Assembly (NCBI GenBank): GCA_041617155.1
Contig: JBFJPL010000005.1
Span: forward strand, 2,564 to 66,563
Direction of reading: 5' to 3'
Length of the DNA stretch: 64,000 bases
Source: Kiloniellales bacterium
Lineage (GTDB): Bacteria > Pseudomonadota > Alphaproteobacteria > Kiloniellales > JAKSDN01
The notes below the pieces were generated by a model that was given only the letters and a program-made list of their open reading frames with translations, was not told the origin of the DNA and searched no databases. Positions 7,528-56,500 of the stretch are shown here, in pieces. Both the position numbers and the translations under genes were made by a program. Position 1 is the first letter of the stretch. Each line of letters starts with the position of its first letter.

Positions 7528-7654
7528 CGCACCCTCTTAGAGAACCGCGACATATAGTAGGTAACCCCACCTGGGTCCACAACAGATTGTCGGATACTGG
7601 CCGGCAGCGTGACGACTAATCCTTAAAGACAGGTTTCGCGAGCCGAAAAGAGCT

Positions 7655-14079: not shown

Positions 14080-14347
14080 CCCAAAGATCAGGCAAAAGTG
14101 CCACCTTAGAACCAAGATCGGCCCCAATTGTCAAACCCGACTGCCCGCTTGACCGCACGCCTTCGAAGGTCCCACTCGGCTCGTGAGACCGGACAGCCGG
14201 CCGGTCGGCCACCGCCACCGAAAGTAGCGTATTTTGCACTTATGCGACTTAATCGTTAAGAGAAAACACACCTTCCGATTGCTAATCATACGCAGCGACG
14301 CTGAGCCCGCCACGGTTGCAATGCCGATCACTTGGAAGGACCGCTCG

Positions 14348-36241: not shown

Positions 36242-38146
36242 TCAGGTTTCCGATCCGGCGGGCACGGCTTCCCGGATAAAGGTCCGTTCGACATAGTCGA
36301 CGATTTTTTGCACGCATAAGTCGATAGACTGCTTTGCGGTGCCGACAGTCAGTTCGGGTTCGAGGGGCGGCTCGTAGGGCGCCGAAATTCCCGTGAATTC
36401 CTCGATCTCGCCAGCCCGAGCCCGGCGGTACAGCCCCTTCGGATCGCGCCGCTCGCAGGTCTCCAGATCGGCCTGGATATAGATCTCGTGGAACCCGGCG
36501 CCGCAGGCGGCCCTGGCCCGGTCGCGATCGGTCTGGTAGGGCGAGATGAAGGCCGTAATGCAGATCATGCCGGCGTCGGCGAAGAGCGCCGCGGTCTCGC
36601 CCACCCGGCGAATGTTCTCCGCCCGGTCCTGGGGCGAGAAACCCAGGTTGGCGTTGAGCCCTCGGCGAATGTTATCGCCGTCCAGCACATAGACATGGAA
36701 ACCCTTCTGGAACAGCCGCTGTTCGACCGCCATGGCCAAGGTCGATTTGCCGGCACCCGACAGCCCGGTGAACCAGAGCACGCCACCGCTGTGGCCGTTG
36801 CGCCGGGTTCGGATTTCCGCCGTGAGCCGGTGCTCGACGCTGGTCAGATTGGTCGATTTTACGGTCAACGCCTGGCGCTGGTCCGGATAGCCCTCCATGG
36901 AAATTACACCGCCGGCCACGGTGTCGTAGCCGTCGATCAGCACGCAGCGTCCGGTTTTGGCAATCGTCCGGAATTCGTCGACGACCAGTATCTGCCGGCT
37001 CCGCAGGATCACCTCGGCCACTGCGTTTCGTTCGACCTGCTGGCCGGGCCGGTTGGCCAGGGTGTCGGTATCGATCACCCGTTCGATCGACTGGACCGTG
37101 ACCCGGGCCTCCTGCGTGGCAATCTTCGCCTTGTATTGCTTGCCGACCTCCAGTGGTTTGTGGGCCAGCCAGAATAGATGGGCGCGAAACACCGTCGTCA
37201 GTTGCGGCGGCCTGTCGAGGCGGCTGGCCACCTCGCCGCGTTCGACGAAAATCTGGTCGTCCAGGGTGATGCCGACGGACTGCCCGGCGCGGGCGGAAAC
37301 CGGCAACTGCTCGACGTTCCAGTCCTCGATCGAGCGGACTTCAGCGGTCTTGTTGGATGGTGAGAACAGCAGGGTGTCGCCGACGCGCAGCGTGCCGGAT
37401 TCGATGCGCCCGGCGAGAATGCGCCGCCGGTCGAACTTGTAGATGTCCTGTATCGGCATGCGCAGGGGTTGCTCGATCGGCCAGGTGACGTTGTCGAAGC
37501 GATCGAGCGCGTCCAGAACGCTCGATCCGGCGTACCATGCTGTCCTCGCGGAGACCGTTGCGACGTTGTCGCCGTCACGCGCCGAAACCGGCACGACGAA
37601 GGCTGGCGTGATTCCGATTTCACCCAGGTATTCCGTGATCTCGCGGCTTACCTCGGTAAAGCGGGTCTCGTCAAAGCCGATCAGGTCGAGCTTGTTGACC
37701 ACGACGGCGACCTGGCGAATGCCGAGCAGATACAGCAGATAGCCGTGACGGCGGGTCTGTTCGCGCACGCCCTCGGCGGCATCGATCACCAGAACCGCGG
37801 CATCCGCGCTGGCGGCGCCGCTCACCATGTTGCGCAGGAACTCGCGGTGGCCCGGCGCGTCGATGATGACGTAGTCGCGCTTGTCGGTCTTGAACCAAAT
37901 CTGGGTGCTGTCGATGGTGACCGCCTGATCCCGCTCGGCCTGGAAGGCGTCGAGCACGAAAGACCACTCGATCGCCGCACCGCGGCGCGCCGAGACCGCC
38001 TTGAGTTCCTCCTCCTTGCCCGGCGGCAGGGAACCGGTGTCGAACAGCAGCCGGCCGATCAAGGTCGACTTGCCGTGATCGACATGGCCGACCACGACGA
38101 TCTTCAGGGGCGGCAGGGCCGTGTGTGCGGTCTGACCGGCGGCCAT
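36242..38146 (-). CDS. cysNC: Bifunctional sulfate adenylyltransferase subunit 1 / adenylylsulfate kinase
   Basis: GTPase motifs GHVDHGKST, DAPGH and NKLD are present. The C-terminal APS kinase has the P-loop GLSGAGKST. ATG 38146 overlaps the cysD stop (ATGA). Confidence 0.9.
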   Translation of the reverse strand: MAAGQTAHTALPPLKIVVVGHVDHGKSTLIGRLLFDTGSLPPGKEEELKAVSARRGAAIEWSFVLDAFQAERDQAVTIDSTQIWFKTDKRDYVIIDAPGHREFLRNMVSGAASADAAVLVIDAAEGVREQTRRHGYLLYLLGIRQVAVVVNKLDLIGFDETRFTEVSREITEYLGEIGITPAFVVPVSARDGDNVATVSARTAWYAGSSVLDALDRFDNVTWPIEQPLRMPIQDIYKFDRRRILAGRIESGTLRVGDTLLFSPSNKTAEVRSIEDWNVEQLPVSARAGQSVGITLDDQIFVERGEVASRLDRPPQLTTVFRAHLFWLAHKPLEVGKQYKAKIATQEARVTVQSIERVIDTDTLANRPGQQVERNAVAEVILRSRQILVVDEFRTIAKTGRCVLIDGYDTVAGGVISMEGYPDQRQALTVKSTNLTSVEHRLTAEIRTRRNGHSGGVLWFTGLSGAGKSTLAMAVEQRLFQKGFHVYVLDGDNIRRGLNANLGFSPQDRAENIRRVGETAALFADAGMICITAFISPYQTDRDRARAACGAGFHEIYIQADLETCERRDPKGLYRRARAGEIEEFTGISAPYEPPLEPELTVGTAKQSIDLCVQKIVDYVERTFIREAVPAGSET

Positions 38147-38940
38147 CACATATAGCCGTCGGCGCGCAGCCGCTCGAAGGCGTCTTCGCGCTCGTGGTCC
38201 ATGGCCCGTCCGGCGCGCTCCGACGTGGTCGTGGCCTCCAACTCCGCAATGATCTCATCGACCGTCGACGCCTTCGATTCGATCGGGCTGGTGATGTCCT
38301 GGTCGCCGAGCGAGCGGTAGCGCTGGCCCTTGCGGGCGAAGTAGAGCGGCACCACGGGTATGTTCTCGCGCTTGATGTAGCGCCAAATATCCAGTTCGGT
38401 CCACTGCAGCAGCGGGTGGACGCGCAGGTGAGTGCCGGGTGGAAAATCGGTCTTGTACTGGTCCCAGAACTCGGGCGGCTGGTCGCGGAAGTCCCACTGC
38501 CCGCTTTCGTCGCGCGGGCTGAACACCCGCTCCTTGGCACGGACCGCCTGCTCGTCGCGGCGGATGCCCAGAATCAGGCCGTTCAAACCGTGCTTTTGGA
38601 CCGCCTGTTTCAACCCGGCGGTCTTGCGCGCCGCCGAGCGCGCCGCCGGCGGCAGGGTGTCGTCCACATCCTCGAGCGGCGGACAGTCCTCGGTCAAGAG
38701 CTCGAGCCCCCACTCGACCGCATAGCGCTTCCGGAAGGCATACATCTCCTTGAACTTCCGGCCGGTATCGACGTGCAGCACAGGAAACGGCACATGGCCG
38801 AAGAAAGCCTTGCGCGCCAGCCAGACCATGGCATTGGAGTCCTTGCCGAGCGACCAAAGCATGGCGAGCGGCTCGATCCGGTTATAGGCCTCGCGCAGGA
38901 TGTAAATCGACTGCGCTTCCAGTTCGTCCAGGCGTTGCAT
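38146..38940 (-). CDS. cysD: Sulfate adenylyltransferase subunit 2 (short form, 264 aa)
   Basis: The start is trimmed to ATG 38940 (MQRLDELEAQSIYILRE). It has the PP-loop SLGKDS. The upstream part of the 594-aa track ORF is antisense to nnrS. Confidence 0.9.
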   Translation of the reverse strand: MQRLDELEAQSIYILREAYNRIEPLAMLWSLGKDSNAMVWLARKAFFGHVPFPVLHVDTGRKFKEMYAFRKRYAVEWGLELLTEDCPPLEDVDDTLPPAARSAARKTAGLKQAVQKHGLNGLILGIRRDEQAVRAKERVFSPRDESGQWDFRDQPPEFWDQYKTDFPPGTHLRVHPLLQWTELDIWRYIKRENIPVVPLYFARKGQRYRSLGDQDITSPIESKASTVDEIIAELEATTTSERAGRAMDHEREDAFERLRADGYM

Positions 38941-39156
38941 GGGTTCCGGGTCGCTTAAGGATCGGCATAGGATCGTCGGCGAGAGGGACAAGGCCTCCCG
39001 GGGTTCGCCGATTAGCGCCTTTGTGGCCCCGAGGCAACCTTTTTCCGCTCGGGAATAGTCACCGTGACATGCCGATGTAGCCTTGACGGTCCGAGCCTTT
39101 CGCGGGATTTCTATAGCGCTAGTCGGCCTCGCGATCAGACCTGGGGAGCAACAGCC

Positions 39157-40359
39157 ATGGCAAGGGCCCGCCCGACCGCATCGGACGGAGGCGACGAGGC
39201 AAGTGCGGCAATCTGGCGGCAGGGATTCCGGCCTTTCTTCCTGGGCGCGGCCTTGTGGTCGGCGGCGGCACTGGCGCTTTGGATCCCGGCCCTGACCCAC
39301 GGTCTGGTCCTGCCCAGCGGTTTCGGCGCGGCGGCCTGGCACGCCCACGAAATGCTGTTCGGTTTCGCCGCCGCGGCGATCGCCGGCTTCCTCTTGACGG
39401 CGATCCCGAACTGGACCGGCCGCCTGCCGATCCAGGGCACCCGGCTCGCCTTTCTGTTCACCCTGTGGGCCGCTGGCCGCATCGCCGTCGCCACCTCGTC
39501 GCTGGTCGGCGAGTGGCTGGCCGCGACAGTGGACGTCGGCTTTCTCGCGACCCTCTGCGCCATGGTTCTGCGCGAGATCCTGGCCGGCCGGAACTGGCGC
39601 AATCTGCCGATGGCTGGCGTGCTGGCCGTGCTCGCCCTGGCCAATCTCACAACCCATCTGGAGCCGCTCGGCCTCGCGGACACCAGCGACCTGGGCCAGC
39701 GCCTGACGATTGCCACCGTCGCGTTCCTCATCACCTTGATCGGCGGCCGGATCGTGCCGAGCTTCACCCGCAATTGGCTGAACAAGCGCAGCGAAACCGC
39801 GTTGCCGAGGACTTTCGGCCGGCTCGACCGCGCGACCGTGGCGGTCACGGCCTTGACCGGCCTTGGCTGGACCCTGCTGCCCGAGTCGGCGTTGACCGGC
39901 GTCCTGGCGCTTGTGACCGCCGCCGCCCAAGGTCTACGCCTTTCCGGCTGGCGCGGCCACAAGACCGGCGCCGAGCCTTTGGTCTGGGTGCTCCATCTTG
40001 GCTATGCCTGGCTGCCGATCGGCTTCGCGCTACTAGGTGTCGCGATCCTGACCGATCTGCTGCTGCCAAGCGCCGCCTTCCACGCCCTGACGGCAGGGGC
40101 CATGGGAACCATGATCCTGGCGGTCATGACGCGCGCCACCTTGGGCCACACCGGCCGGGCGCTGACCGCCGGTCCGGCGACGCTCGCCATCTACGCCCTG
40201 GTCACGCTCGCGGCCCTGCTTCGCCTGCTCGCGCCGCTCTTCGGCGGCGCGGAACTGCCGGTCATGGCCGTGGCCGGCCTGTCGTGGATCGCCGCCTTCG
40301 GTCTTTTCGCCACGGCCTATGGTCCTCTCCTCATTGGTGCCGAGCACCGCAGCGATTAG
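39157..40359 (+). CDS. nnrS: NnrS family haem/copper membrane protein
   Basis: The start is trimmed to ATG 39157. It reads GFRPFFLGAALW...AWHAHEMLFGF...LTAIPNWTG, and 12 hydrophobic segments are visible. Confidence 0.85.
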   Translation: MARARPTASDGGDEASAAIWRQGFRPFFLGAALWSAAALALWIPALTHGLVLPSGFGAAAWHAHEMLFGFAAAAIAGFLLTAIPNWTGRLPIQGTRLAFLFTLWAAGRIAVATSSLVGEWLAATVDVGFLATLCAMVLREILAGRNWRNLPMAGVLAVLALANLTTHLEPLGLADTSDLGQRLTIATVAFLITLIGGRIVPSFTRNWLNKRSETALPRTFGRLDRATVAVTALTGLGWTLLPESALTGVLALVTAAAQGLRLSGWRGHKTGAEPLVWVLHLGYAWLPIGFALLGVAILTDLLLPSAAFHALTAGAMGTMILAVMTRATLGHTGRALTAGPATLAIYALVTLAALLRLLAPLFGGAELPVMAVAGLSWIAAFGLFATAYGPLLIGAEHRSD

Positions 40360-40564
40360 GGCTCCTACGCACAAACGCGGCTCAAGCCGCGGCGCCTCGC
40401 AATTTCCCTTTGGCGGGGGACCCGGATAGGCCAGCCAAGCCTACGCATGGCACGGGTGTGCCAAATGCGGACAACGGAAATGGCCTATCGACCTGCCCCT
40501 TCGCCGGGCCGGGGCTAGACCCTGGGGCAATGACCGGTGCGATCGGAACCTCCCCGTCTCAGGG

Positions 40565-40948
40565 CTACTCGGTCAATACCTTGAGTATGTCGTAGCGGCT
40601 GACCTGCCCGACGAGCTTGCCGTCGCGGAGGACCGGGAAGCGACGGAAGTGGCTGTCGAGAAAATGCTGGGCCGCGCTCACCAGGTCCTGACCCGCGTCC
40701 AGGGTTGTCACGGGCGTGCTCATGAAATCGCGTACCGGTCCGCCCCAGTCGTCGTGATATCGTGTCGAAAAAACGATCTTCAGGCAGTCCTTCTTGGACA
40801 GCATGCCGACCAGGTCGCCGTCGGTGTCCACCACCGGTGCGCCGGAAATCCGTTTGTCGAGGAGAATCCGGATGGCCTCGTGAATGTTCATGTCCGGCGT
40901 GAAGGTAACCAGCCGAGTCGCCATGATGTCGGCGACGGTCCGAGTCAT
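40565..40948 (-). CDS. CBS-pair domain protein, last gene of the nqr-type operon
   Basis: 127 aa. The start ATG 40948 overlaps the nqrM stop (ATGA). Two CBS motifs are present (ISGAPVVD, RFPVLRDGKLVG). Confidence 0.75.
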   Translation of the reverse strand: MTRTVADIMATRLVTFTPDMNIHEAIRILLDKRISGAPVVDTDGDLVGMLSKKDCLKIVFSTRYHDDWGGPVRDFMSTPVTTLDAGQDLVSAAQHFLDSHFRRFPVLRDGKLVGQVSRYDILKVLTE

Positions 40949-41100
40949 CGCTCCTTCCCGGGCCGGCAGAGGGGACAGGCCTTGAGCACAGCGTCTCCGC
41001 CGCACGACCCCTTGAGCGGGCCGCGGCCGAGCAGGACCCCCGCGCCGAGTCCGAGGATCGCCAGCACGATCACCGCGAAGCTGAGCAAGAACAGCGTCAT
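40945..41100 (-). CDS. nqrM: (Na+)-NQR maturation protein NqrM-like, 51 aa (below ORF-track cutoff)
   Basis: Hand translation gives MTLFLLSFAVIVLAILGLGAGVLLGRGPLKGSCGGDAVLKACPLCRPGKER. It has one TM helix, then GSCGG and CxxC, which is the pattern I recall for NqrM/DUF539. ATGA overlaps occur at both ends. Confidence 0.65.
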   Translation of the reverse strand: MTLFLLSFAVIVLAILGLGAGVLLGRGPLKGSCGGDAVLKACPLCRPGKER

Positions 41101-42059
41101 GAAGCGCCTCCCACCGCGAATCCGTTGACGTCCACTTCCTCCAGTCCGCCCGGGCGGCGCATCAGGAACAGCGCGCTGGCGTCGCGAGCCTTGAGCAGCG
41201 GGCGGGCGGCTTCCGGCCCCAGCACCATGGCGGCCGTTGCCAGACCGTCCGCAATCAGCCCCGTCGCGGCCAACACGCTCACCGAGGCGACCCCATTGTT
41301 TACCGGCGTCCGGGTACGCGGGTCCAGAACATGACCATAGCGCCGACTACCAACGGCATAGCCCTGCGCGCCGTCGCCCGACGTCGCCAAGGCGCGCCTG
41401 TCTGCTTCGACGATTCGCTGAAGCATGGTCGATCCCGGCCGTTCGATACCGACACGCCAGGGCCGTCCCGATGGGTGGCGGCCCCGGGCCGCGACCTCGC
41501 CGCCCAGTTCGACCAGGAAATCGAGCCCGTCGAGCGCCTGCACGATCTCGTCCAGCGCGTGTCCCTTGGCGATGCCGCAAAGGTCGAGGCTCAACCCGGG
41601 GCACGCCGTTCTCAGCACATCACCGACGATGCTCAGATCGCGATACCGGCCGCTCGGGCGGGCAGGCGAAATGGCGGGCGGCCCGAAGCCGTAGCGCCTG
41701 CCCAGCGGCGCCGTGGTCGGGTCGAAGGCGCCGTCGCTGTCCCGGGCCAGCTCCAGCGCCGCGCGCGCAACGAGACTTGTCTCGCGCGACACAAAGGTGC
41801 AGCCGGCGGCGTTGAAGCGGGCCAATTCGGAGCCGGAGCGATAGGGCGACATGAGGGCATCAATGCGCGCCACGACCACTTCCAGCCGGGCCCGCGCCCG
41901 GGCCGCCTCGCGCGTGTCGGGCAGCACGAGCCGCCACGCCGAGCCGAAGGCGGGGCCCGTGTGGACGCGCACTTCGGCCGCGCGTGCCGCGGCGGGCAAG
42001 ACGTTCAGCAACGCCGCGCCGCCGGCTATTCGCAGAAGCTCCCTTCGCGTGATCGTCAT
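41097..42059 (-). CDS. apbE: FAD:protein FMN transferase (ApbE family), Tat signal
   Basis: 320 aa. It has an RRELLRIAGGAALL signal, GIAKG, and HVLDPRTRTP motifs. It abuts the nqrF stop. Confidence 0.85.
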   Translation of the reverse strand: MTITRRELLRIAGGAALLNVLPAAARAAEVRVHTGPAFGSAWRLVLPDTREAARARARLEVVVARIDALMSPYRSGSELARFNAAGCTFVSRETSLVARAALELARDSDGAFDPTTAPLGRRYGFGPPAISPARPSGRYRDLSIVGDVLRTACPGLSLDLCGIAKGHALDEIVQALDGLDFLVELGGEVAARGRHPSGRPWRVGIERPGSTMLQRIVEADRRALATSGDGAQGYAVGSRRYGHVLDPRTRTPVNNGVASVSVLAATGLIADGLATAAMVLGPEAARPLLKARDASALFLMRRPGGLEEVDVNGFAVGGAS

Positions 42060-43277
42060 TCAGCCTCCGAAATCGTCGTACAGGATATTCTCGCGCGGGA
42101 CGTCCAGCGTATCCAGCAGGGCGCGTGCCGCCTCGATCATGAGGGGCGGGCCGCACAGATAGTATTCGCACGCCGCCGGGTCGGGATGCGCCTTCAAATG
42201 GTTGCGGTAGACGACGTCATGGATGAACCCCGTCTCACCGTCCCACGAGTCGCCGGGCGCGGGGTCGGACAGCGCCACATGCCAGGAAAAATTCGCGTGT
42301 TCCCGCGCCAGCCGCTCCATATCGTCGGCGTAGTAGAGATCGATCAACGCGCGCGCGCCATACCAAAAGCTGATCCTGCGCGACGTCCTTTTGTATTCGA
42401 GCTGGTCGAACACATGCGCGCGCAGCGGCACCATGCCGACGCCGCCACCGATCAGGACGATCTCGCGGTCCGTCTCCATGACGAAGAAGTCGCCGAACGG
42501 TCCCGACACCGTGACCGCGTCGCCGACCTCGAGACCGAACAGGTAGGACGACACCACCCCGGGCGGCGCGTCCGGCCTGCTGGCGGGCGGCAGGGCGAGG
42601 CGGATGTTGAGCAGCAGCGCGTTGGTCTCCCCGGGGTGGTTGGCCAGCGAATACGCCCGGGCAACGGGGGCCTTGCACCGGGCCGTGAGTCTTCTAAGGC
42701 CCAAACGCGTCCAGGCATCTTCGTGCGCGGGGTCCACGGCGATCTCGGCGAACGGCAGGGTGAAGCGCGGCGCGGTGACCTCCACGTATGATCCGGCCCG
42801 GAAACTCCTGGCCTGCCCCTCGGGCAGGGCCAGCACGATTTCCTTGATCAGCGGCGCGAGGGATCGAGTCCGGCTGACGGTGCATGACCAGGTTTCCGCG
42901 ACCAGCAGGTCGGCGGCCACGGTGACCGCGAGGTCGTCGCGCACCACCACTTGGCAGGCGAGGCGGACGCCGTTCGCGATGTCGACTTCGCCTAGCGTGG
43001 CCCGCTCGATCGGCAGAACGTCCCCGCCACCGGTTACGGTCACCCGGCACAAACCACAGGTGCCCGCCCCGCCGCAGCTTGTGGGCAGATGCACGCCGCC
43101 ATGTTCCAGTGCCGCCAGCAGTTTTTGTCCGAGGTCGGCGTCCAGGACACGCTCGCCGTTCACGGTGATGTGCGCGAGGCCCCCGGGCACCAGCACGGCC
43201 CGGGCGACCAATACGACGAAGGCCAGCACCATGATCAGTCCCGTGAACACCGAACTGCCAAGAAGGATCTCCGTCAT
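42060..43277 (-). CDS. nqrF: NADH:quinone reductase (Nqr-type) subunit F
   Basis: The start is trimmed to ATG 43277. It has an N-terminal TM helix, the 2Fe-2S motif SCGGAGTCGLC...LACQ, the FAD motif RAYSLAN, and an NAD-binding GGGVGM region. Confidence 0.9.
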   Translation of the reverse strand: MTEILLGSSVFTGLIMVLAFVVLVARAVLVPGGLAHITVNGERVLDADLGQKLLAALEHGGVHLPTSCGGAGTCGLCRVTVTGGGDVLPIERATLGEVDIANGVRLACQVVVRDDLAVTVAADLLVAETWSCTVSRTRSLAPLIKEIVLALPEGQARSFRAGSYVEVTAPRFTLPFAEIAVDPAHEDAWTRLGLRRLTARCKAPVARAYSLANHPGETNALLLNIRLALPPASRPDAPPGVVSSYLFGLEVGDAVTVSGPFGDFFVMETDREIVLIGGGVGMVPLRAHVFDQLEYKRTSRRISFWYGARALIDLYYADDMERLAREHANFSWHVALSDPAPGDSWDGETGFIHDVVYRNHLKAHPDPAACEYYLCGPPLMIEAARALLDTLDVPRENILYDDFGG

Positions 43278-43284
43278 CGTCGCC

Positions 43285-43887
43285 TCATCCGAACTCCAGC
43301 CCGCCGAAAACGGCAAACCCCATCGACATGAAACCGGTCAGGATGAACGCGAGCCCGAGGCCGCGCAGCCCGTCCGGCACGAGAGTCTCGTCGATCCGCT
43401 CGCGCAGGGCGGCGAGCGCCCATACGGCCAGCGCCCACCCCAGCCCGGAACCCAAGCCGTAGATCACGCTCTCGGAGAACTCGTAGCGGCGCTCGACCAT
43501 GAACAGGCTGGCGCCGAGGATGGCGCAGTTGACGGTGATCAGCGGCAGATAGATTCCCAGCGAGCGGTAGAGCCGGGGGAAGTGGCGATCGAGGACCATC
43601 TCGAGGATCTGCACTGTGGCCGCGATGACGCCGATCGAGGCGATCAGCACCAGGAAGCTCAGATCGACCTCGCCCAGCCCCAGCCACGTCAGCGCGCCGG
43701 GCCCGAGCAGCCAGGTGAAAAGGAGGTTGTTGACAGGGACGGTGATCGTTTCGACCACGATCATGGCGAGGCCCAGCCCGAACGCGGTCTCCAGATGACG
43801 GGAGACCGCGAGGAACGTGCACATTCCAAGGAAGTAGGCGAGCGCCAAATTGTCGGTGAATACCGATCGGACCAGTAGTTCGGTCAT
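43285..43887 (-). CDS. nqrE: Nqr-type subunit E
   Basis: 200 aa, starting [29 protein letters not shown]. The conserved Cys residues in GMCTFL and VNCAIL are present. ATGA overlap with nqrD. Confidence 0.9.
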
Positions 43888-44534
43888 CGCGGCACCTCGC
43901 CGCCCTGTTCTCCCGGGGCCGGCTCGGCCTGTTCCGGCCGAATGGTACGTATCGCCCACACCAGCAGTCCGAGCAGGAAGAACGCGCTCGGCGGCAGCGC
44001 CATCAATCCGAGCGGCGTGAACCAGCCGCCATCCGCGGCGGCCGGCAAAATTGTGACGCCCAACAGCGTTCCCGCACCGAAAAGCTCGCGCACGATGCCG
44101 ACCGTAACCAGGATCAGGGCATAGCCGAGGCCGTTGCCGAGACCGTCGAGCAGGCTCGCGCCGGGGGGATTCTTCATGGCGAAACCTTCCGCGCGGGCGA
44201 GCACGATGCAGTTAGTGACGATGAGGCCGACAAACACGCTGAGACGCTTGCTCATCGCGAACATGTAGGCTTGCAGCATTTGGTCCACGACGATGACCAG
44301 CGAGGCAATGATCGTGATCTGCACGATGAGCCGGATCGAGCGGGGAACATGGTTGCGAATCAGGCTGATCAGGCCGTTGGAGAGGGTGAGCACGAAGATC
44401 AGCGCGGCGCTCATCACCAGGGCGGTGGCCAGCGACGTGGTCACCGCAAGCGCAGAGCAGATCCCGAGCACCTGAAGCGTCACCGGGTTGGCGACGAGAA
44501 TGGGGTCGACCAGGGTGCGGGTGCGATCGCTCAT
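43884..44534 (-). CDS. nqrD: Nqr-type subunit D
   Basis: This is the last 216 aa of track ORF 43884..45245, reading [12 protein letters not shown] and [17 protein letters not shown] overlap with nqrC. Confidence 0.9.
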
Positions 44535-45271
44535 CGCCCCGCCTCCGACTTGAGGCGATCGAGATACGGGCCGTAGCCGTCGGGGCCGAGCCAGAAACGC
44601 AGTAGGTTGGTGACGCCGGTGCCGGTGCGGGTCGCACCGGAGATGCCGTCGACCTCGTGCACGCCGGTGCCGGCGCCCTTGACCACCCCGATGCGGATCA
44701 CGCCGTCGGCATCGGCCACCTGCCTGCCCGGCCAAAGGGCCTGCCACGCATCTTCCTCGATGCGCGCGCCCATGCCGGGGGTCTCGTCCTGTTCGTAAAA
44801 GGTCAGCGCGGCGACGGTGTTCAAATCGGCCTTCAGGGCAAGATACCCCTTGAGCGTCGATTGATAGCCGGTTCCGCGCACCGGCAGGACCACCAACCTC
44901 AACGCGCCCTCCTCGCGCAGTTCGAAGACGGTGGCCACGTTCTCGCGGCTGCCCAGCCCCGCACGGTCGCGGTCGACCGGCAGCTCGGTGCTCGTGCCCG
45001 GGTCGCGGTCCACATCGGCGCCGGAGGCGAGATCCACCAGACGCATCTCCGGAACGCCCGCGCCCAGGATTTCCAACATCCCCAGCATGCGCGCCACCTT
45101 GTCCGCCTGCCGGTTGGCGTCCTGCAGCGGCCTCAGCGTCACCGCCGTGGCCGAAACCACCAGCGAGCAAACCAGGGCAACCAGGAGCGCGACGCCGACG
45201 GTCTTCGCCGTGCTGTCGTTGGGCAGGGCAAGGAAGCCCCGCCACCAGACGAGCGGATTGGCACTAGCCAT
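44531..45271 (-). CDS. nqrC: Nqr-type subunit C (FMN-binding)
   Basis: The start is trimmed to ATG 45271. It has one N-terminal TM helix and the FMN phosphoester site ISGATRTG. Confidence 0.85.
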
Positions 45272-46049
45272 GGCGGGGCCTCCAGGCGAGCGCCCGGTCC
45301 AGAAGCGGCGCGAACAGCCCGCCCAGCAGAGCCGCGAACACCACGCCGTCGGGCTGGTCGGGATTGGCGAGGCGGATCGCGACAATCAGCGCGCCGACCA
45401 GCATGCCCAGCAGCCAACGGGCACCACTGCCGGCGATCGCGCCCTCGGGCGCCGCAGCGAGGAACAGGATACCGGCTGAGAAGGCACCGAGGCCGGGATG
45501 CTGCCACCACACGGGGTCGCCCATCAACAAACCCGCCGCCGCAGCGCCGGCCACGGCGCCCGCGGCGACCTGCCAGGCGAGCGAGCCTCTCAACATCAGG
45601 ATAACGGCCCCGGGCAGGCAGGACAGGGCGAACACGTAGTCGGGCGACAGCGCGAGGATGCCTTGCGCCTCGAACCCGCCCTCGGGGAAGGAAAAGATGG
45701 CGAATGCCAGGCCGATCAGCGCCGGCGGCAGTATCGCCCTGCCGCCGAAGATCTCGCGCCCGAAGACGGCGCCGAAGCTGAGCGCGAGCACGGCCCCGCC
45801 CCAGCCGACCGGCCCTGGCAGCATCACGACGAACAACACGGCGAAGGCAGGCAGCCCGGAGCCGAGCGGGCGTCCCGTCCGGCGCGCGAACAGGGCGGCC
45901 CAGGCATAGGTGATGCCGAGCGCCAGAGCGAGCAGAAGCAGCCGCTGCATCGCCACCTCCGTGCCGTCGCCAAACAGCCGCACGAGGAAGGGCAGCGTCA
46001 GCGCCAGCAGCCTGAGGCGGTCATCACTGTCCGGATCGGTCATGGTCAT
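45264..46049 (-). CDS. nqrB: Truncated NqrB/RnfD-family membrane subunit (261 aa, no SGAT FMN site)
   Basis: The start is at ATG 46049 (MTMTDPD). Blocks FGAVFGREIFGG and IRLANPDQPDGVVFAALLGGLFAPLLD align by eye with NqrB. There is an 8-nt overlap with nqrC. Confidence 0.75.
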   Translation of the reverse strand: MTMTDPDSDDRLRLLALTLPFLVRLFGDGTEVAMQRLLLLALALGITYAWAALFARRTGRPLGSGLPAFAVLFVVMLPGPVGWGGAVLALSFGAVFGREIFGGRAILPPALIGLAFAIFSFPEGGFEAQGILALSPDYVFALSCLPGAVILMLRGSLAWQVAAGAVAGAAAAGLLMGDPVWWQHPGLGAFSAGILFLAAAPEGAIAGSGARWLLGMLVGALIVAIRLANPDQPDGVVFAALLGGLFAPLLDRALAWRPRHG

Positions 46050-46423
46050 CGCGTGCCAACTTAAGGTCGGGATGAAACCCTGACAACGGTTGTGCCTCAA
46101 TCGCCTGGGCTTGTCTCGGGGTCGCGGGCAGTCTGCGGTCGCCTTGACGAACAACGCCTGGTCATTCGACGGCTCAGTGGACAGCTTCCTGGGGCAGCCC
46201 ATTCCAACGACAACCTGATCGGTGAGTGGCACGTCGTCCGCGCCGATTGCCACGGCCATTTGCGAAGCTTCGAGCAATGATCGTTGAACAGTACCGCCGG
46301 GCGGAGGCTTTGGCTGTGCCTTCGCCATCGGGAACCAGCCGATCAATGAATCGGTTCGGGGAAACAATGGCTCAAAGTCGGACATCGGCCTCGGAGAGTC
46401 CGAAGCTGCGGTTGAACTGACGT

Positions 46424-46459
46424 GGGGCAAACATGGCAAAAATGGCAAAAATGGCAAAA
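46424..46459. repeat. Tandem 9-mer atggcaaaa, three perfect copies plus one degenerate
   Basis: ggggcaaac (46424-46432) is followed by atggcaaaa at 46433, 46442 and 46451. It lies in the divergent nqrB/cytochrome intergenic region. Confidence 0.9.
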
Positions 46460-46558
46460 GCAGCCATGATTGGACGTCAGCGTATTCTGCTTTCGACTGC
46501 GGGCTCATGGCGCACTATGATAATTCCATCGACGAACTAGAATGCCGCACCATTCGTT

Positions 46559-47833
46559 ATGGGAATGCTCATGGACACTTTTTCGTGTGGCGCGCGTGCC
46601 TTCCAAATCCGGAACGACGTGCCGGAGCTGACGGTGAGCAAGCTGTATGACCTCTTCGCCATTGCCAACTCATGGAGACATCTCGGCGGGCTCGTTTCGA
46701 TTGCATTTGTTGTTTTGCTGTTGGCCGGCTTAAGTTCGCCGCTTGCCGCGGCGGGTCTCAATGGCGACAAGGCCTACACCGAAGGGCCACAAGTGTGCGG
46801 CCGTTGCCACACGGAAGCTTTGGAGCAGTGGCTCGCTCACGGCCACAGCCGGAAGCTCGCCATCGGCGGGCCGGCGCTCAAGGCGCTCGACGGCAAATTT
46901 GGCCTTTTCGGGAATGCGCGAGACGGCGGATTCCGCCTCCCGGACCACGACAAAGATGCCTATAACTGGGACAACGTGGCGCTGATCATCGGCGCAAGCA
47001 AGCGATGGAAGACGCGATTCCTGGCCAAAGACGGCTACATCATCACCAAGGGCGGGAACAACCAATATAACTGGGCGGACGGTTCTTGGGTCGACTACCA
47101 CAAGGACGAACAGAAAAAGTATAGCTGTGGCAGCTGCCATACCACCGGCTATCGGGAGGGCGGCAGCGCTTTCGGCGCAAAGCGAATTCCTGGCACGACC
47201 GCCGGTCCCATGCCCGGCATCGCGGGGGACTGGGCCCAGTTCAACATCACCTGCGAGGCCTGCCACGGACCGGGCGCGGCTCACGCCGCGAAGCCGAGCA
47301 AAGTCAACATAATAGTGGACAATTCGGCGCAGTCATGCGGCACGTGCCACATCCGCGGATCGGACCCGAACACCATCATCGCGGAGGGCGGCTTCATCCG
47401 CCATCACGAACAGTATCCCGAGTTCGCCAACAGCCCTCACAAGGACCTTGCCTGCACGACCTGCCACCAACCCCACGACAGCCGCTCGCAGGGCATGAAG
47501 GTGAGCGCCGCGAACACCACGGTCTGCGACACCTGCCATGGCGCGCAGAAGGAGCTATTCGCCGGCAGTCCGATGCAAAAGGCCGGTGTGACCTGCGTGG
47601 ACTGCCACATGGCAAAGGTCACGAAGTCCGCGGTTGCAGTGGGGCCCTATGAGGGCGACGTGCGCACCCACGTCATGCGGATCAATCCCGCCGCCGATTA
47701 CGTGATGTTTACACCAGACGGCAAAGCGGCCAAGAATGCTATCAGCTTGGAATTTGCCTGTTTTCGGTGCCATGCCGCGGCCAGCAAGGCGGAGTTCGCC
47801 AAGATCAAGGACTTCCATGCCATCGGCAAATGA
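46559..47833 (+). CDS. Octahaem c-type cytochrome, periplasmic or membrane-anchored
   Basis: Eight CxxCH motifs are present: CGRCH, CGSCH, CEACH, CGTCH, CTTCH, CDTCH, CVDCH, CFRCH. The N-terminus has a hydrophobic segment, LVSIAFVVLLLAGLSSPLAAAG. The start is uncertain (ATG 46559 or GTG 46634). Confidence 0.85.
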   Translation: MGMLMDTFSCGARAFQIRNDVPELTVSKLYDLFAIANSWRHLGGLVSIAFVVLLLAGLSSPLAAAGLNGDKAYTEGPQVCGRCHTEALEQWLAHGHSRKLAIGGPALKALDGKFGLFGNARDGGFRLPDHDKDAYNWDNVALIIGASKRWKTRFLAKDGYIITKGGNNQYNWADGSWVDYHKDEQKKYSCGSCHTTGYREGGSAFGAKRIPGTTAGPMPGIAGDWAQFNITCEACHGPGAAHAAKPSKVNIIVDNSAQSCGTCHIRGSDPNTIIAEGGFIRHHEQYPEFANSPHKDLACTTCHQPHDSRSQGMKVSAANTTVCDTCHGAQKELFAGSPMQKAGVTCVDCHMAKVTKSAVAVGPYEGDVRTHVMRINPAADYVMFTPDGKAAKNAISLEFACFRCHAAASKAEFAKIKDFHAIGK

Positions 47834-48393
47834 CCCGCGGCGGCAATGCATGATGACGCGGCGGTCCTTGGGGCCCCAGCTGCCGGGCAGGCTGCAGTCC
47901 GCCGTGGCCCGGTCGTCGATCAGCGCCTGGTTCATCTCGGTCGCGAAGGAGCCCGGGCCGATGCCGTTGACCTGGAGGCCCATGGGCGCCCAGTCGGCGC
48001 ACATGCCCTTGGTCAGCATCTTGACCGCACCCTTGGCCGCGGTGTAGGGCGCGATGGTCGGCCGGCCGACCTCGCTCATCAGCGAGCAGATGTTGATGAT
48101 CTTGCCGGCCTTGCGCGCGATCATTCGCCGCGCCACCAGGAACACGCCGGTGAGATAGGTCTCGATCACCGCCCGCCAGTCGGCCTCGGGAAACTCGGCC
48201 AAGGGTTTGCGCACCTGGATCCCGGCGTGGTTGACGAGAATGTCGCTCGGCCCCTGCCCCTCCTCGATCTCGACCACGCCGGCCTCGACCGCGGCCCCGT
48301 CGGTGACGTCGAAGGCGACCCGCTCAGCCGCCACCTCGGCCTCGCACAAATCGGCCACGGCCCGCCCCGGCTTGGCCTCGTCACGCCCGTTCA
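47834..48393 (-). pseudogene. Short-chain dehydrogenase/reductase remnant, truncated at both ends
   Basis: The middle of track ORF 47555..48511 reads ILVNHAGI...INICSLMSEVGRPTIAPYTAAKGAVKMLTK...VNGIGPG (SDR NAG and YxxxK motifs). There is no N-terminal GxxxGxG Rossmann segment and no normal C-terminus. Confidence 0.6.
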
Positions 48394-48914
48394 GCACCAC
48401 CGCCGCCACGCCGACCATGGCACCCGCGGCGACCTGCCATGGCAGCAAGCCGCGCAACATCAGGACCGCCGCCCCGGGCAGGCAGGACATCGCGAACAGG
48501 GGATCGGGCAACAGCGCGAGAATACCGCGCGCCTCGAACTCGACCTCGGGGAAGGGGAAGATGGCGGCCGATCAGCGCCGGGGGCAGTATGGCCCTGCCG
48601 ACGAAGATCTCGCGCCCGAAGACGGCACCGAAGCTCAGCGCGAGAACGGCGCCGCTCCAGGCAACCGGCCCAGGCAGCAACGAGACGAAGGTTATGGCAA
48701 AGGCAGGTAGCCCGGGGCCCGGCGGACGCCCAGCCCGACGCGCGAACAGGCCGGCCCAGGCATAGGCGATGCCGAGCGCCAGGCCGAGCAGCAGCAACCG
48801 CTGAACCGCCGCTTCCGTGCTTTCGCCATAAAGCCGCACGGCCAGAGGCGGCGCCAGCGCCAGCACCCTGAGGACGTCATCACGGTCGGGATCGGCCATG
48901 GTCGTCGCGCGCAT
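48394..48914 (-). pseudogene. Frameshifted partial copy of the short nqrB
   Basis: MRATTMADPDRDDVLRVLALAPPLAVRLYGE...FGAVFGREIFVGRAILPPALIG parallels 45264..46049. An 8-nt gap near 48566 relative to the intact copy breaks the frame. Homology resumes in another frame (PDPLFAMSCLPGAAVLMLRG) and ends at the SDR remnant. Confidence 0.7.
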
Positions 48915-49049
48915 CCCGCGTTAGCGTACGGCCGGGATAACGCACTGACAACGGTCGTGCGTCGGTCGGCTGGGCCGGGGCCGCAGGCCGTCCAAGGTCG
49001 CCTTGGCGGGCTATGTCCGGTCGTTGGACGGCCCCGTGCACAGCTTCCT

Positions 49050-49265
49050 GCCGCGGGCCCTGCTTCGCTTGCCCGCGCCGCTCTTCGGCGGCGCGGAACT
49101 GCCGGTCATGGCCATGGCCGGCCTGTCGTGGATCGCCGCCTTCGGTCTTTTCGCCACGGCCTATGGCCCGTTCCTGACCGGCGCCGCCCGTCGGGTCGAC
49201 TAACGCCGGTGGTCACATAAGACGCCTGAGCCGCGGGCTCCCTCGTTGCAGTTCTGGCGGGTGAT
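49050..49265 (+). pseudogene. Orphan copy of the nnrS 3-prime end plus its downstream sequence
   Basis: Track ORF 49003..49203 ends LLRLPAPLFGGAELPVMAMAGLSWIAAFGLFATAYGPFLTGAARRVD, compared with the nnrS C-terminus LLRLLAPLFGGAELPVMAVAGLSWIAAFGLFATAYGPLLIGAEHRSD. DNA similarity continues past the stop (gagccgcgg...). Confidence 0.65.
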
Positions 49266-50386: not shown

Positions 50387-52027
<1,641 letters not shown>

Positions 52028-52031
<4 letters not shown>

Positions 52032-53230
52032 GACGCGACCCCGGCGGTTGCGCGTGCCGCGCCGCCTTCCGGCCGCGGCAGGAAGCGGTCGATGCCGAAC
52101 GGTCGGGCCGCCTCCAAGGTCTCGCCGGTCAGGACGTAATGGCTGACCAGTTTGGCGGTCGCGGGGGCCAAGAGGATGCCGTTGCGGTGGTGCCCCGTCG
52201 CCAGCACCAGGCCCTCGACCCCGGCGCTCCGCGGCGCCGGCCCCAGGATCGGCGCGTCGTCGCGGCTGGTTGGCCGGAAACCGACCCAGAACTCCTCGAT
52301 CGGCAGCTCCTCGATGCCGGGCACGGCCCGCCAGGCCGCCTCCAGCACCGCATAGACGCCGCCGGCCGTCAGCCGGTCGTCGAAGCCCTTTTCCTCGACC
52401 GTGCCGCCGACGATCAGGCGGCCGTCGAGGCGCGGCACCATGTAGATCTTCGGCGCCCACAGTACGTGCCGCAGCAGGGGCTCGGCCGGGTCCATCCTGA
52501 GCGCCAGCATCTGGCCCTTGACCGGGCGCACCGGCGGTCGGGCGGCTTCGGGCAGCCCGTCGATCTCGCGCGACCAGGCGCCGGCGGCAAGCACCACCAC
52601 ATCGGCCGGGCGAAAGGCGTCGCCAATGCGCAAACCCCGCACCCGGCCGCCCTCGGCCTCGACGGCAGCGACCTCGGTGTCCTCGTGTAGCCGGCCACCG
52701 GCCGCCAGAAACGCGCGCTTCAAGGCCTCGCCCAGCTTGCGGTTGTCGACCTGGTGGTCGTGCGGCGAGAAGACCGCCGCGGCGGTGCCCGGCCGCAGGA
52801 ACGGTTCGCGCCGCCGCGCCTCGGCGCCGCTCAGCCATTCGAGCTCGATGCCCAGACCGGTCTGAAACTCGTAGCCGAAGCGCAATTGCCCTACATCGTC
52901 GCGGGTCAGCGCGGCAACCAGGGTGCCATCGGCGCGGTAGTCGACCGCCATGCCGGCGGCCGCTTCGAGCTCCCGCGTGAAGTCGGGCCAGAGCGCTTGG
53001 CTCCACTGGTTCAGCGCGAGCAGACGCTGCTCGCCGGGCTCGGTCTCGACGCCACCCGCCAGCATACCGGCGGCCGCCCAGGTTGCGCCGTGCCCCGCCT
53101 TGCCCCGGTCGTAGACCTCGACCGGGCAGCCGGCCGCCGCCAGGCGCCAGCCGATCCCCAGGCCGCACACGCCCGCGCCGACAATGGCGACGCGCGGCAG
53201 CTTGGCAGTCGATGATGAAAGTGGACCCAT
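52028..53230 (-). CDS. thiO: Glycine oxidase ThiO
   Basis: 400 aa with an FAD Rossmann motif VAIVGAGVCGLG. It is the first gene after the TPP riboswitch. Confidence 0.85.
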
Positions 53231-53597: not shown

Positions 53598-56500
53598 TCA
53601 TGCCAGCTCGTCGAGCAGCGCCTTGGCTTCCTTGAGGTCCGGGGTGCCGAAGCCCTCGGTGAACCAGCCGTAGACTGGCGCAAGAAGATCGTGAGCGTCA
53701 TGGCGTTTGCCCTGCTCGGCCCAGTGCCGTGCAAGGCTGGTCGCGGCGCGCAGTTCCCAGGATTTGGCGTCTTGCGCCCGCGCGACTTGGATCGCTCTCT
53801 GCAAACTTACCGCTGCGGAATCGGCATCGCCCGATTGCAGTAGGGCTTGTGCGCGGAGCTGATGAATCCTCGATTCCCACCACCGCTCGCCGGTCTGCTC
53901 CCCGATATCTAGAGCTTGGGCCAGCGTTTCGAGCGCTTCAGCACGCCGCTGCGAGTGCAAGAGACTCTCGGCGAAAAGACATGTGAAGGGTTGAAGCCAC
54001 GTACGCGCTCCAATCCGGTTCCAGTTCTCAAGCCCGGTACGAATTCGCTCAAGCCCATCCTCCGCCTGCCCCGTCAGCGCAAGCGCCCAGCCGCTAATGA
54101 TCAGGGCGCTCGCCTCGGTCTGCACCAATTTTTGCTCCTCGCTTAGCTGCAGCAGTTTCTCGGCTGTCGACAGCGCCGCAGCCTTGTCGCCGCGCGCCGC
54201 ATGGGCCGCGCCAAGGAACCAAAGCGCGAAGGCAAGCGTGGGCGCGTGACCGAGGCGCCGTGCGATTTGCAGGGCGTCCGTGTCATGTCGGTGCGCCCGG
54301 TCAGGGAAACCGAGTGCCCAGACGACGCCGGCGCCGAGAGCGTGGGCGCAGACCGCCGGGTCATGCCCTAAGTACACAAACGCGTGGTGCTTGTGCTGTT
54401 CATAGTCATAAAGAGCCAAACCCTTCTCGATGTGTTCGTTCGACCTCACGAACGCACCCCGGTACATCGGAATTGGCCACGCGGCATGGTGGGACTGTAA
54501 CAGCAAGTCGCGGTTAGAAGTGGTCTTAGCCACCTGAAACAGCTCTTGGGTAACCTGGTCGGCCAGATCAAACCGGCCACGAGTTGCATGAAACAGCCAC
54601 ATTCCCACGAGCGGCGGCACTAAATCGGCGGACCTTTCGAGCAGACCTGCCAGCGTTCTCGCCCGTTCGTATGCTGTCCCTACCTCTGTCGCCGCCCATC
54701 CTTTGACCAGCATCAGGGCAGGCCCAAGGTGAGTTAGCACCCTAAGCTCGTTCGTGTTGCGTTCGCGGCCTTCGGGCTGAATGTGAATCAGGTCGAGTGC
54801 CTTCTGAAAGTGCTGAATGGCCTCGATATTGGCGGCCCGTCGCACCGCCTCCTGACCGGCGAGTTGCCGATACTTGATCGCCGGCTCTATCAAGCGGGCT
54901 TCGGTGTAGTGATGGGCGAGCAGTTCGGGCGCCGCCCCTGCCTCGAAAGAAATCGCTTCGAGCGCCTCTGCTACTCGGGCATGCAATTGCTGGCGTTTGG
55001 ATTTAAGGAGCGAATGGTAGGCGGTGTCCTGGACCAGAGCGTGCTTGAAGATATACGAGCTTCCGGAACGCTTGCGGCGGCGGTAGACCAACTCCGACTC
55101 GACCAGCCGGTCGAGCGCAGCGTCTAGCTCCGGCTTGGCGCGGTCGGCCACGGCAGCCAGTAGCTCGTGCGAGAACTCGCGCCCGATGACCGCGCCAATC
55201 TGGGCTGCCTCCTTGACCGGACCGAGGCGATCGAGCCGCGCCATGAGAGAGTCGTGCAGGGTTGAAGGGATCGCCAACGGCGGCAACGGACCGGCCAGTT
55301 CGTAATGGTCGCCGGCATCGGTGAGTAGGCCCAATTCGAGTGTCGTCTTGGTCAGCTCCTCGACGAACAGCGGCACACCGTCGGTCTTGGCCAGGATCTG
55401 ATCGAGCACTTCCGCGGGCAGCGGCTTGCCGCTCGTGAGGCGCTGCACCACGGCCGCGCCCTGCCGCCAGCTCAGCCGGTTGAGCGAAAGCTGAGTGACA
55501 CAGGCATGGCCAATCCAAGGTGGTTGAAAGTCTGGTCGGAAGGTCAGGATCAGCAGCACCGGCAGGCGCACTAGGCACTCGACAACCAATGCCAAAAACT
55601 CCTGTGTGCTAGGGTCAATCCAGTGCACGTCCTCGAATATCATCAGGACCGGTTCGTGCGCCGCCAATCCCTCGAGCTGCTCGACCAGCGCTTCGAGCGT
55701 ACGTTGTTTCTGCCGCTGCGGCGTCATCTTGAGCGCCGGGAAGCGTTCAGCGGTCGAGATACCCAGGGCCTGGGCAAGCAAAAGCGTGGCTTCGCCCACC
55801 TCTGCGGTACCCTGGCCGAGCACAGCTTCTAGAAGCTCGAACTTGACCTCGACGGTGTCGTCATGGCCAAAGCCTGCGGCTCTCTGGAGCTGGTCGAGTA
55901 TTGGGTAAAGTGCCGTGTTGACGTGAAACGGCGAACAGAAGTAGCGCAGGTTGACGTACGAATCATCGGCGAGCTGCGCTCTCAAGCTCTCGACGATGCG
56001 CGATTTGCCGATTCCGGGCTCGCCAGAGAGCAACACGACCTGTCCCTCTCCGTCGCGCGCCTGGCGCCAGCGCGAGAGCAGGAAACGCAACTCTTCGTCG
56101 CGGCCGATCAGAGGTGTCAACTCTGCCCCGTGGCGCGCCTCGAAGCGGCCCTCCATACGACTCTCGCCGGTAACCCGCCAGGCTTGGATCGGTTCAGCAA
56201 ACCCCTTGAGTTCGCGTGCACCTAGATCGGCCAGATCGAACAACTCACCGAGTAGATGACGCGTGCCCGGCCCAATCACCACACTGTTGGGTTCGGCCAA
56301 GGTCTGAAGGCGCGCAGCCAAGCTCGGCGTCTCGCCGACCACCGCCTCTTCTTGTGCCCCACCTTCGCCGACTATGTCGCCGACGATCACTTGACCGGTC
56401 GCGATACCAACCCGCGCCGCCAAATGCTTGCCCGTTGGCGTCATCAACTTTGCGACCGCCTCGGCAAGCTCCAGTCCCGCTCGCACCGCGCGTTCGGCAT

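Follow-up and report, generated by a model that had tools for sequence, protein, structure and literature searches.

A 64,000-nucleotide (nt) stretch of DNA from a Kiloniellales bacterium (NCBI GenBank assembly GCA_041617155.1, contig JBFJPL010000005.1, positions 2,564 to 66,563 of the forward strand), referred to below as the window, carries on its minus strand, at positions 40565-46049, a gene cluster related to the operon of Na+-NQR, the NADH:quinone oxidoreductase that translocates Na+. Here, we report that this operon is a real, conserved and stripped-down relative of Na+-NQR without the NqrA subunit. It encodes a short NqrB-like protein, NqrC, NqrD, NqrE, NqrF, the flavin transferase ApbE, a small NqrM-like protein and a stand-alone CBS-pair protein; its layout is not the accident of a single genome and recurs far above chance. 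The ligands of NqrC to NqrF are kept and the flavin sites of NqrB are lost, so that electrons would stop at the periplasmic flavin mononucleotide (FMN) of NqrC. We therefore read the short NqrB with NqrC, NqrD, NqrE and NqrF, at about even confidence, as a reduced Na+-NQR that may keep the first half of the electron path only, with its exit at the NqrC FMN.

The operon and its family

All eight genes are intact open reading frames (ORFs) with ATG starts and zero internal stops (Table 1). Genes B and C overlap by 8 nt; a 4-nt overlap (ATGA) joins C/D, D/E, apbE/nqrM-like and nqrM-like/CBS; apbE follows F without a gap, and 7 nt lie between E and F. These ORF coordinates reproduce the eight minus-strand genes and the junction overlaps described earlier by a model that read the letters of the window (hereafter the original prediction), whose term "fully translationally coupled" is slightly overstated at E/F. 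Most internal starts of the operon are preceded by a Shine-Dalgarno-like GGAGG or GGGAGG. Promoter and terminator scans gave nothing beyond shuffled expectation; the sole promoter-like site (46493-46521, plus strand) was matched by shuffled sequences. Public gene calls on identical DNA (GCA_041579315.1, L001) have the same coordinates from nqrC to the CBS gene and a B gene of 331 amino acids (aa); the shorter start given in Table 1 is supported over that call by the lengths of its homologues, which are 259-264 aa in most of the 120 listed.

Public protein data hold more than 170 close relatives of the short NqrB. A scan with one genome per species gave 28 loci (L005-L032), one of them being the chromosome L004, i.e., 27 species-level genomes besides the window, all of which are metagenome-assembled genomes (MAGs) and mostly labelled Alphaproteobacteria, Rhodospirillales or Thalassospiraceae. 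The order B-C-D-E-F is found in every locus as far as the contigs extend. Among the 23 loci without nqrA that reach the end of nqrF, apbE is present in 16, an nqrM-like gene (50-52 aa, a helix followed by the GSCGG...C..C motif) in 18 and the terminal CBS gene in 21, and two further loci have an nqrM-like sequence match without the GSCGG motif. A neighbour-joining tree of NqrD plus NqrE (411 columns) places the NqrA-less family in one clade, recovered in 100% of 200 bootstraps, inside the NQR lineage; its NqrD and NqrE are 62% identical to those of Vibrio cholerae. A co-occurrence survey, as proposed with the original prediction, thus returned short NqrB with NqrC, NqrD, NqrE and NqrF, and no nqrA within 10 kb of the operon, in 27 further genomes. 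Together with the losses in NqrB described below, this conservation supports its central idea of a five-subunit NQR derivative without NqrA, whose acceptor may not be quinone.

The pairwise ratios of non-synonymous to synonymous substitution (dN/dS) have medians of 0.11-0.26 over the eight genes (B 0.24, C 0.21, D 0.20, NqrM-like 0.26, CBS 0.14), which indicates purifying selection. The operon is therefore functional and old, as its layout is conserved in a monophyletic family under such selection. These values also bear on the proposal that the operon is a decaying, non-functional NQR remnant. Decay does occur at this locus, where a decayed partial second copy adjoins the operon (47555-49236); the eight genes themselves, however, are intact and constrained, their lengths and order are conserved in the 27 other genomes, and the cofactor ligands of NqrC, NqrD, NqrE and NqrF are all kept, so that we regard this explanation as effectively refuted.

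Searches with tblastn and phmmer detected nothing like NqrA in the 64-kb window, nor in the 27 related loci, the latter searched over 10-kb flanks of the operon. The probe, which also served as positive control, was the Pfam-verified NqrA (NQRA_N, NQRA_2nd, NQRA_SLBB) of L033, an Aestuariivirga MAG with nqrA, a full NqrB with its FMN site and a CBS tail (nqrABCDEF-apbE-CBS). There was also no tblastn match to an nqrA remnant in the region upstream of nqrB or elsewhere in the window, and the missing nqrA of the original prediction is confirmed to this extent. The genes 5' of B differ between the loci and are unrelated to each other.

Table 1. Genes of the operon and of its upstream flank, in window positions
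Feature	Position	Strand	Description
short nqrB-like	45264-46049	-	261 aa; membrane core of NqrB/RnfD; PF03116 match partial
nqrC	44531-45271	-	246 aa; N-terminal membrane helix and periplasmic FMN-binding domain; PF04205, TIGR01938
nqrD	43884-44534	-	216 aa; NF006777; aligned to 7xk3_D, 275 bits
nqrE	43285-43887	-	200 aa; TIGR01940; aligned to 7xk3_E
nqrF	42060-43277	-	405 aa; membrane helix, 2Fe-2S ferredoxin domain, FAD/NADH domain; TIGR01941
apbE (FAD:protein FMN transferase)	41097-42059	-	320 aa; PF02424, 206 bits
NqrM-like	40945-41100	-	51 aa; one membrane helix, then GSCGG-x7-C-x2-C
stand-alone CBS-pair protein, last operon gene	40565-40948	-	127 aa; PF00571, two copies
divergent intergenic region, nqrB-like gene to cytochrome gene	46050-46558	.	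509 bp
octahaem c-type cytochrome	46559-47833	+	8 CXXCH, N-terminal hydrophobic signal/anchor, multihaem Pfam families; divergent from operon

Retained and lost parts of the electron path

Subunit identities were assigned with Pfam and NCBIfam profiles (equivalog cut-offs), and residues were aligned with those of the V. cholerae subunits. Four subunits pass their NCBIfam cut-offs: NqrF at 455.8 bits (cut-off 295), matched end to end over positions 1-405 of 405, NqrE at 280 bits (247.55), NqrD at 305.9 bits (235) and NqrC at 163 bits (144). In V. cholerae numbering, NqrD keeps C29, C112 and D133 and NqrE keeps C26, C120 and E95; all four cysteines for the intramembrane 2Fe-2S cluster (D-C29, D-C112, E-C26, E-C120) are thereby aligned and kept. 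The flavinylated threonine of NqrC is retained in an SGATRT motif aligned with T225 of V. cholerae (7xk3_C; dglSGATlT versus dgiSGATrT). NqrF aligns to 8a1t_F over residues 1-405, and its cysteine ligands and the R-x-Y-S motif for flavin adenine dinucleotide (FAD) are invariant in the family. The ligand motifs that the original prediction listed for these four subunits are all present and fall on the corresponding V. cholerae residues.

The flavinylation pair is complete, with a PF02424 transferase and an NqrC FMN-binding domain that carries the acceptor threonine, and the ApbE N-terminus, read from the sequence, has a twin-arginine-type signal (TRRELLRIAG...). The operon's own ApbE was thus correctly predicted. 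The name NqrM stands less firmly: the 51-aa protein scores 13.5 bits against the Pfam NqrM family (PF04400, threshold 22) and matches profile positions 1-17 of 43 only, though its motif is conserved in the family as counted above. The corresponding protein of a sister family that contains nqrA (see below) has a weak PF04400 match. The CBS-pair protein is probably a nucleotide-sensing regulator; a CBS gene also stands at the 3' end in the sister family and in L033.

Unlike NqrC to NqrF, NqrB fails its profile widely, scoring 91.6 bits with the best NCBIfam NqrB model (cut-off 414), and its alignment to V. cholerae NqrB is limited to residues 139-218 and 275-401. Alignments that include the full-length L033 NqrB and relatives indicate that three segments are missing: the N-terminal cytoplasmic stretch (V. 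cholerae residues 1-54), a loop of ~40 residues between transmembrane helices 1 and 2 (TMH1 and TMH2), and the periplasmic loop with the flavinylated threonine (GYAGATP in L033; T236 in V. cholerae). In place of V. cholerae residues 219-274 the short protein has 15 residues, without an S/A-G-A-T motif. In V. cholerae NqrB, riboflavin is hydrogen-bonded by T162, N200, N203 and D346, residues F34-L54 anchor NqrA, and W23-K54 form the pocket for korormicin and aurachin (PMC9325719). The four riboflavin positions are F69, A105, P108 and A200 in the window protein, and the family consensus around them is G-G-R-x-I-L-P-P-A and A-A-P-E; E144 and G140/G141 are altered as well. D397 is retained (window D251) and is invariant among the aligned sequences. 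An AlphaFold2 model of the short NqrB (predicted local distance difference test score 78, predicted template modelling score 0.79) has the NqrB/RnfD helical core fold, and NqrB chains are its best matches in the PDB (query TM-score 0.72-0.83). The short NqrB would be a cofactor-less membrane scaffold. The original prediction was right about its length and overlooked the loss of its FMN and riboflavin sites, which is the more informative reduction.

NqrF may carry a further trace of the absence of NqrA. In V. cholerae, NqrF residues K100, R104, E368, E371, D372, E397 and E399 dock on NqrA (PMC9325719). The window NqrF has E, A, P, A, A, P and E at these positions, i.e., six of the seven are changed. 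Among 26 NqrF proteins from NqrA-less loci, position 100 is basic once, position 397 is never acidic, and small neutral residues prevail at 371 and 372; position 100 is basic in five of six relatives with nqrA, in which acidic residues at 371, 372, 397 and 399 are commoner. This loss of contact charges agrees with the loss of the NqrB anchor and is suggestive rather than decisive. Both losses bear on the explanation of a split canonical NQR, in which NqrA, and perhaps a full NqrB, would be encoded elsewhere in the genome and assemble with the window subunits. The scope of our nqrA search leaves some room for such genes. We nevertheless consider it very unlikely: the short NqrB has no NqrA anchor (V. 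cholerae F34-L54; PMC9325719), the contact charges of NqrF are lost family-wide, nqrA is absent from 27 of 27 loci in a family that diverges down to 49% NqrB identity, and the relatives that possess nqrA have it immediately upstream of nqrB and overlapping it.

In the canonical enzyme, electrons pass from NADH through FAD (NqrF), 2Fe-2S (NqrF), 2Fe-2S (NqrD/NqrE), the FMN carried by NqrC, that carried by NqrB and the NqrB riboflavin to quinone (PMC9325719, PMC12174285). The elements of this path through the NqrC FMN are intact in the window operon, and those beyond it are missing. In our model, NADH would be oxidised at the NqrF FAD on the cytoplasmic side, the NqrF 2Fe-2S cluster would pass electrons to the NqrD/NqrE 2Fe-2S cluster within the membrane, a cluster probably installed by the NqrM-like protein, and this cluster would reduce the periplasmic FMN on NqrC, presumably attached by a Tat-exported ApbE. 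The return path (FMN of NqrB, riboflavin, and quinone at the NqrB/NqrA site) is gone, so that electrons would leave from the NqrC FMN on the periplasmic side, to an acceptor in the periplasm or at the membrane surface. The acidic residues linked to Na+ handling, NqrD-D133, NqrE-E95 and NqrB-D397 are kept, and the complex may therefore still move cations. Gene content, conservation and the loss or retention of each ligand are read directly; from these sequences we infer which way electrons flow, what accepts them, whether ions are pumped and what the CBS and NqrM-like proteins do.

The complex could instead still be an NADH:quinone oxidoreductase with a new quinone site, for example at the NqrC FMN on the periplasmic membrane surface or in a remodelled NqrB; the loss of NqrA and of the NqrB flavins would then merely shorten the path. 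The short NqrB is constrained (36 invariant alignment columns, dN/dS 0.24), suggesting more than a passive role, and most loci have no obvious dedicated acceptor gene nearby, both of which would fit this proposal. However, the residues that hold riboflavin are all lost, as is the N-terminal segment of the inhibitor/quinone pocket (PMC9325719), and NqrB G140/G141 and E144 are not conserved. We judge a new quinone site unlikely.

Flanking cytochromes and candidate acceptors

If electrons do leave from the NqrC FMN, the acceptor in some members is most plausibly a multihaem cytochrome c. Such cytochromes are the most recurrent neighbours of the operon, being found near it in six of 27 distinct NqrA-less loci, and among the 136 proteins encoded within four genes of the operon over all loci the most frequent Pfam families are Cytochrome_C7 (7), Cytochrom_c3_2 (7) and Paired_CXXCH_1 (6). 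Homologues of the window octahaem protein (36% identity) lie ~100 bp upstream of B and co-oriented with it in L029 and L030, and L019 has a distant hexahaem relative, divergent from the operon. A pentahaem cytochrome immediately precedes B in L025 and stands two genes (~3 kb) off in L018; it is orthologous, at 45-53% identity, to the cytochrome that adjoins nqrA in the sister loci L036 and L039. By sequence, solved structures gave weak local matches only for the octahaem protein and none for the pentahaem protein. The octahaem cytochrome may be considered a candidate periplasmic redox partner, and it is the weakest of the parts that we assign to the operon. An obligate pairing of the octahaem protein with nqr genes was rejected, as three close homologues on long contigs are not beside nqr genes; the partnership is therefore facultative at best.

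Taken together, we put forward a more specific version of the preferred reading, in which NqrB'CDEF (B' being the short NqrB) would be a natural, self-sufficient half-NQR that pumps Na+ or H+ while passing electrons from cytoplasmic NADH through the NqrC FMN to multihaem cytochromes, i.e., an ion-pumping NADH:cytochrome c oxidoreductase. We offer this tentatively, as a possibility that is somewhat unlikely to hold in all its parts.

The association with multihaem cytochromes would also suit the reverse operation, in which a periplasmic donor feeds electrons through these cytochromes and the NqrC FMN to NAD+, driven by a Na+/H+ gradient, as a lithotrophic module. The homologous RNF core is reversible (PMC12174285, PMC11889175), and several members come, by their isolate names only, from "sand", groundwater, a cold seep and an oxygen-minimum zone. 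Against this, no lithotrophy cluster is found beside the operon in the window, where cysDN, genes of thiamine synthesis and NnrS adjoin it; NADH is oxidised in NQR by the NqrF module, with nothing here that marks it as reversed; and to lift electrons from cytochrome c onto NAD+ with one coupling site would be energetically demanding. Reverse operation therefore seems to us quite improbable.

Several observations weigh against the preferred reading of an exit at the NqrC FMN, and against cytochromes as its acceptors. A multihaem cytochrome is near the operon in only six of the 27 loci, and the remaining flanks hold unrelated transporters and housekeeping genes; no conserved acceptor gene dedicated to the operon is universal in the flanks of the loci. 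Proteins closely related to the octahaem cytochrome (64-69% identity) are found by themselves or beside other partners. NqrA is retained in the sister family though the FMN loop of its NqrB is also lost, and the loss of this loop alone therefore does not make NqrA dispensable. Furthermore, the absence of nqrA covers only the window and the searched flanks, and every member of the family is a MAG.

Other genes near the operon were noted as well. In L018, a Thalassospiraceae-type locus, a NapC/NirT-like tetrahaem gene precedes the pentahaem cytochrome (7-474 and 531-1631), and a 698-aa protein rich in 4Fe-4S domains is encoded upstream of the operon in two loci, L018 and L024 (L024 7752-9848). 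In the window, an NnrS gene (PF05940, 382 bits; 39064-40359, plus strand) is convergent with the CBS gene at a distance of 205 bp. NnrS was rejected as a general partner, as it is near one other locus only (L028, ~5 kb away), and its link to the operon is probably incidental. The 2-kb bin at 46001-48000, mostly the octahaem gene, has a G+C content of 0.61 versus 0.68-0.69 in its flanks; this, together with the neighbouring pseudogene debris, suggests that the cytochrome came by rearrangement or transfer.

The decayed partial second copy of the locus contains the 5' part of nqrB' (48381-48914, minus strand; 82-83% DNA identity to 45533-46009), which is frameshifted and runs on into an ORF at 47555-48511 and then into a short-chain-dehydrogenase-like fragment, and a fragment of the 3' end of NnrS (49056-49236, plus strand; 82% identical to 40212-40392). 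It is not a misassembly, because the layout is repeated in two other assemblies (L001, L002). A 341-aa "gene" (47846-48871) called on the opposite strand has no Pfam match and is probably spurious. The wider surroundings in the window are ordinarily chromosomal, with cysD and cysN/C (36242-38940) and thiE-thiG-thiS (50387-53168). They further include an adenylate/guanylate cyclase of 1116 aa with SAM, AAA and TPR domains (53598-56948), a 1415-aa multi-PAS hybrid histidine kinase (9088-13335) and a 1091-aa PKD-repeat protein (14234-17509).

Relation to known systems and significance

Compared with the canonical Na+-NQR of V. cholerae, NqrC, NqrD, NqrE and NqrF of the window are orthologous with all cofactor ligands kept; as in Vibrio, their genes are followed by apbE and a small nqrM-like gene (PMC12174285). 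The window differs from it by the lack of NqrA, by an NqrB of 261 aa instead of 415 aa in which the site for covalent FMN, the ligands of riboflavin and the N-terminal inhibitor/quinone segment are missing, and by an extra CBS-pair gene; multihaem cytochromes are recurrent neighbours in its family. In the 2014 evolutionary survey (PMC4014512) and a 2025 review (PMC12174285), NQR is taken to have six subunits.

Further families with short B proteins came up in a profile search against 1.8 billion representatives, one of which is the Rhodobacteraceae sister family. Its genes are, in order, a pentahaem cytochrome gene, nqrA, B (268-297 aa), nqrC to nqrF, apbE, an nqrM-like gene of 56 aa and a CBS gene, and the operon is annotated as ordinary NQR/RNF. 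Members (loci L036-L040) include Phaeovulum sp. and Puniceibacterium confluentis (GCA_007923445.1; L036, 6633-14635), a named species whose genome record is an ordinary one and not a MAG. The sister family shares with the window the C-D-E-F-apbE-mini-nqrM-CBS tail and an NqrB without the FMN loop and the TMH1-2 loop. It differs in keeping nqrA, which overlaps nqrB, and in an NqrB that keeps the basic C-terminal tail, the N-terminal A-P-x motif and the riboflavin motifs GGRGxxFLNPA and D-P. Here, then, is an NQR whose NqrB cannot carry covalent FMN and which yet keeps NqrA.

The sister family is a separate clade (92% bootstrap). Within an alphaproteobacterial clade (94% bootstrap versus V. cholerae and Firmicutes) three grades are found: full NQR; FMN loop lost and NqrA kept; and loss of NqrA together with the FMN loop and the riboflavin site. 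Bootstrap support for how the NqrA-less family, the sister family and L033 branch from one another is divided (71% versus 25%), and one or two losses of the FMN loop are both compatible with it. In L033, the first operon gene encodes an EB_dh-family (ethylbenzene dehydrogenase gamma-like) haem protein (6910-8415), which overlaps the start of nqrA by 4 nt.

Earlier papers remark on nqrBCDEF clusters without nqrA in Thermotoga thermarum and T. lettingae (PMC4148951) as well as in Clostridium ultunense and Alkaliphilus (PMC5924567), with the acceptor called unknown in both reports, and one is listed for an Izimaplasma genome (PMC6256511). The original prediction named no described NqrA-less Nqr class; this is qualified by the clusters of the Thermotogae and Clostridia, which are a different lineage with a complete NqrB. 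We represented this type by L034 (3839-6958) and L035 (9887-13772), from Peptostreptococcales and Fusibacter MAGs. Like the window, they have no nqrA and the order B-C-D-E-F. Unlike the window, their NqrB (~320 aa) is complete and RnfD-like, with the S-A-T FMN site, GFGRNxFNPA and TDP present, and they have no apbE-nqrM-CBS tail. NqrD and NqrE of L035 are 47% identical to those of the window (V. cholerae 62%), and L034 and L035 fall outside the NQR clade; the genes directly upstream of their B are on the opposite strand. Judged by these comparisons, the loss of NqrA in the Thermotogae/Clostridia type is independent of that in the window family, and less radical.

The proposed mechanism has a parallel in the one-way flavinylated "NQR/RNF-like" systems, for which Meheust et al. 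(2021, PMC8238504) proposed that a partial NQR/RNF exports electrons to an extracytosolic domain that carries a flavin. Both would have a single transmembrane path to an extracytosolic FMN domain flavinylated by ApbE. Those systems, found in Actinobacteria and the Candidate Phyla Radiation, draw on the opposite half of the complex: the NqrB/RnfD domain is fused to a PF00175 NAD-binding domain and NqrD, NqrE and NqrF are lacking, whereas the window has NqrB and NqrF as separate genes, together with NqrD and NqrE. That survey (PMC8238504) defined NQR by NqrF alone, and operons like that of the window would therefore have passed for ordinary NQR. RNF shares the homologous membrane core, RnfD, RnfG, RnfE and RnfA corresponding to NqrB, NqrC, NqrD and NqrE; however, the poly-ferredoxin RnfB and RnfC with its FMN and 4Fe-4S are absent from the window operon, in which the input module is NqrF. 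The window D and E proteins score as NqrD and NqrE and not as RnfE and RnfA, and the NCBI name for the short NqrB is "RnfABCDGE type ... subunit D". In the searched literature, from which most subscription journals are missing, we found neither the short-B NqrA-less family nor its Rhodobacteraceae sister family described. We consider the window operon a new, uncharacterised form of the known NQR system, whose function we infer.

For annotation, these results mean that NQR calls made from NqrF or PF03116 count the operons of the window type and of the sister family as quinone reductases. The sister operon of Puniceibacterium confluentis may offer an experimental entry point. The place of Na+ coupling in NQR and RNF is under debate; recent structures put it around the NqrD/NqrE 2Fe-2S cluster and the moving NqrC domain (PMC10643135, PMC12901251, PMC11889175), and a conserved natural complex with only the NqrD/E-NqrC half would be a ready-made minimal system for this question. 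If the half-NQR proposal is true, the NqrD/E-NqrC half would suffice for coupling, and NqrA, the FMN of NqrB and riboflavin would only deliver electrons to quinone. It would also give NADH electrons a new route to the periplasm, alongside the flavinylated extracytosolic systems (PMC8238504).

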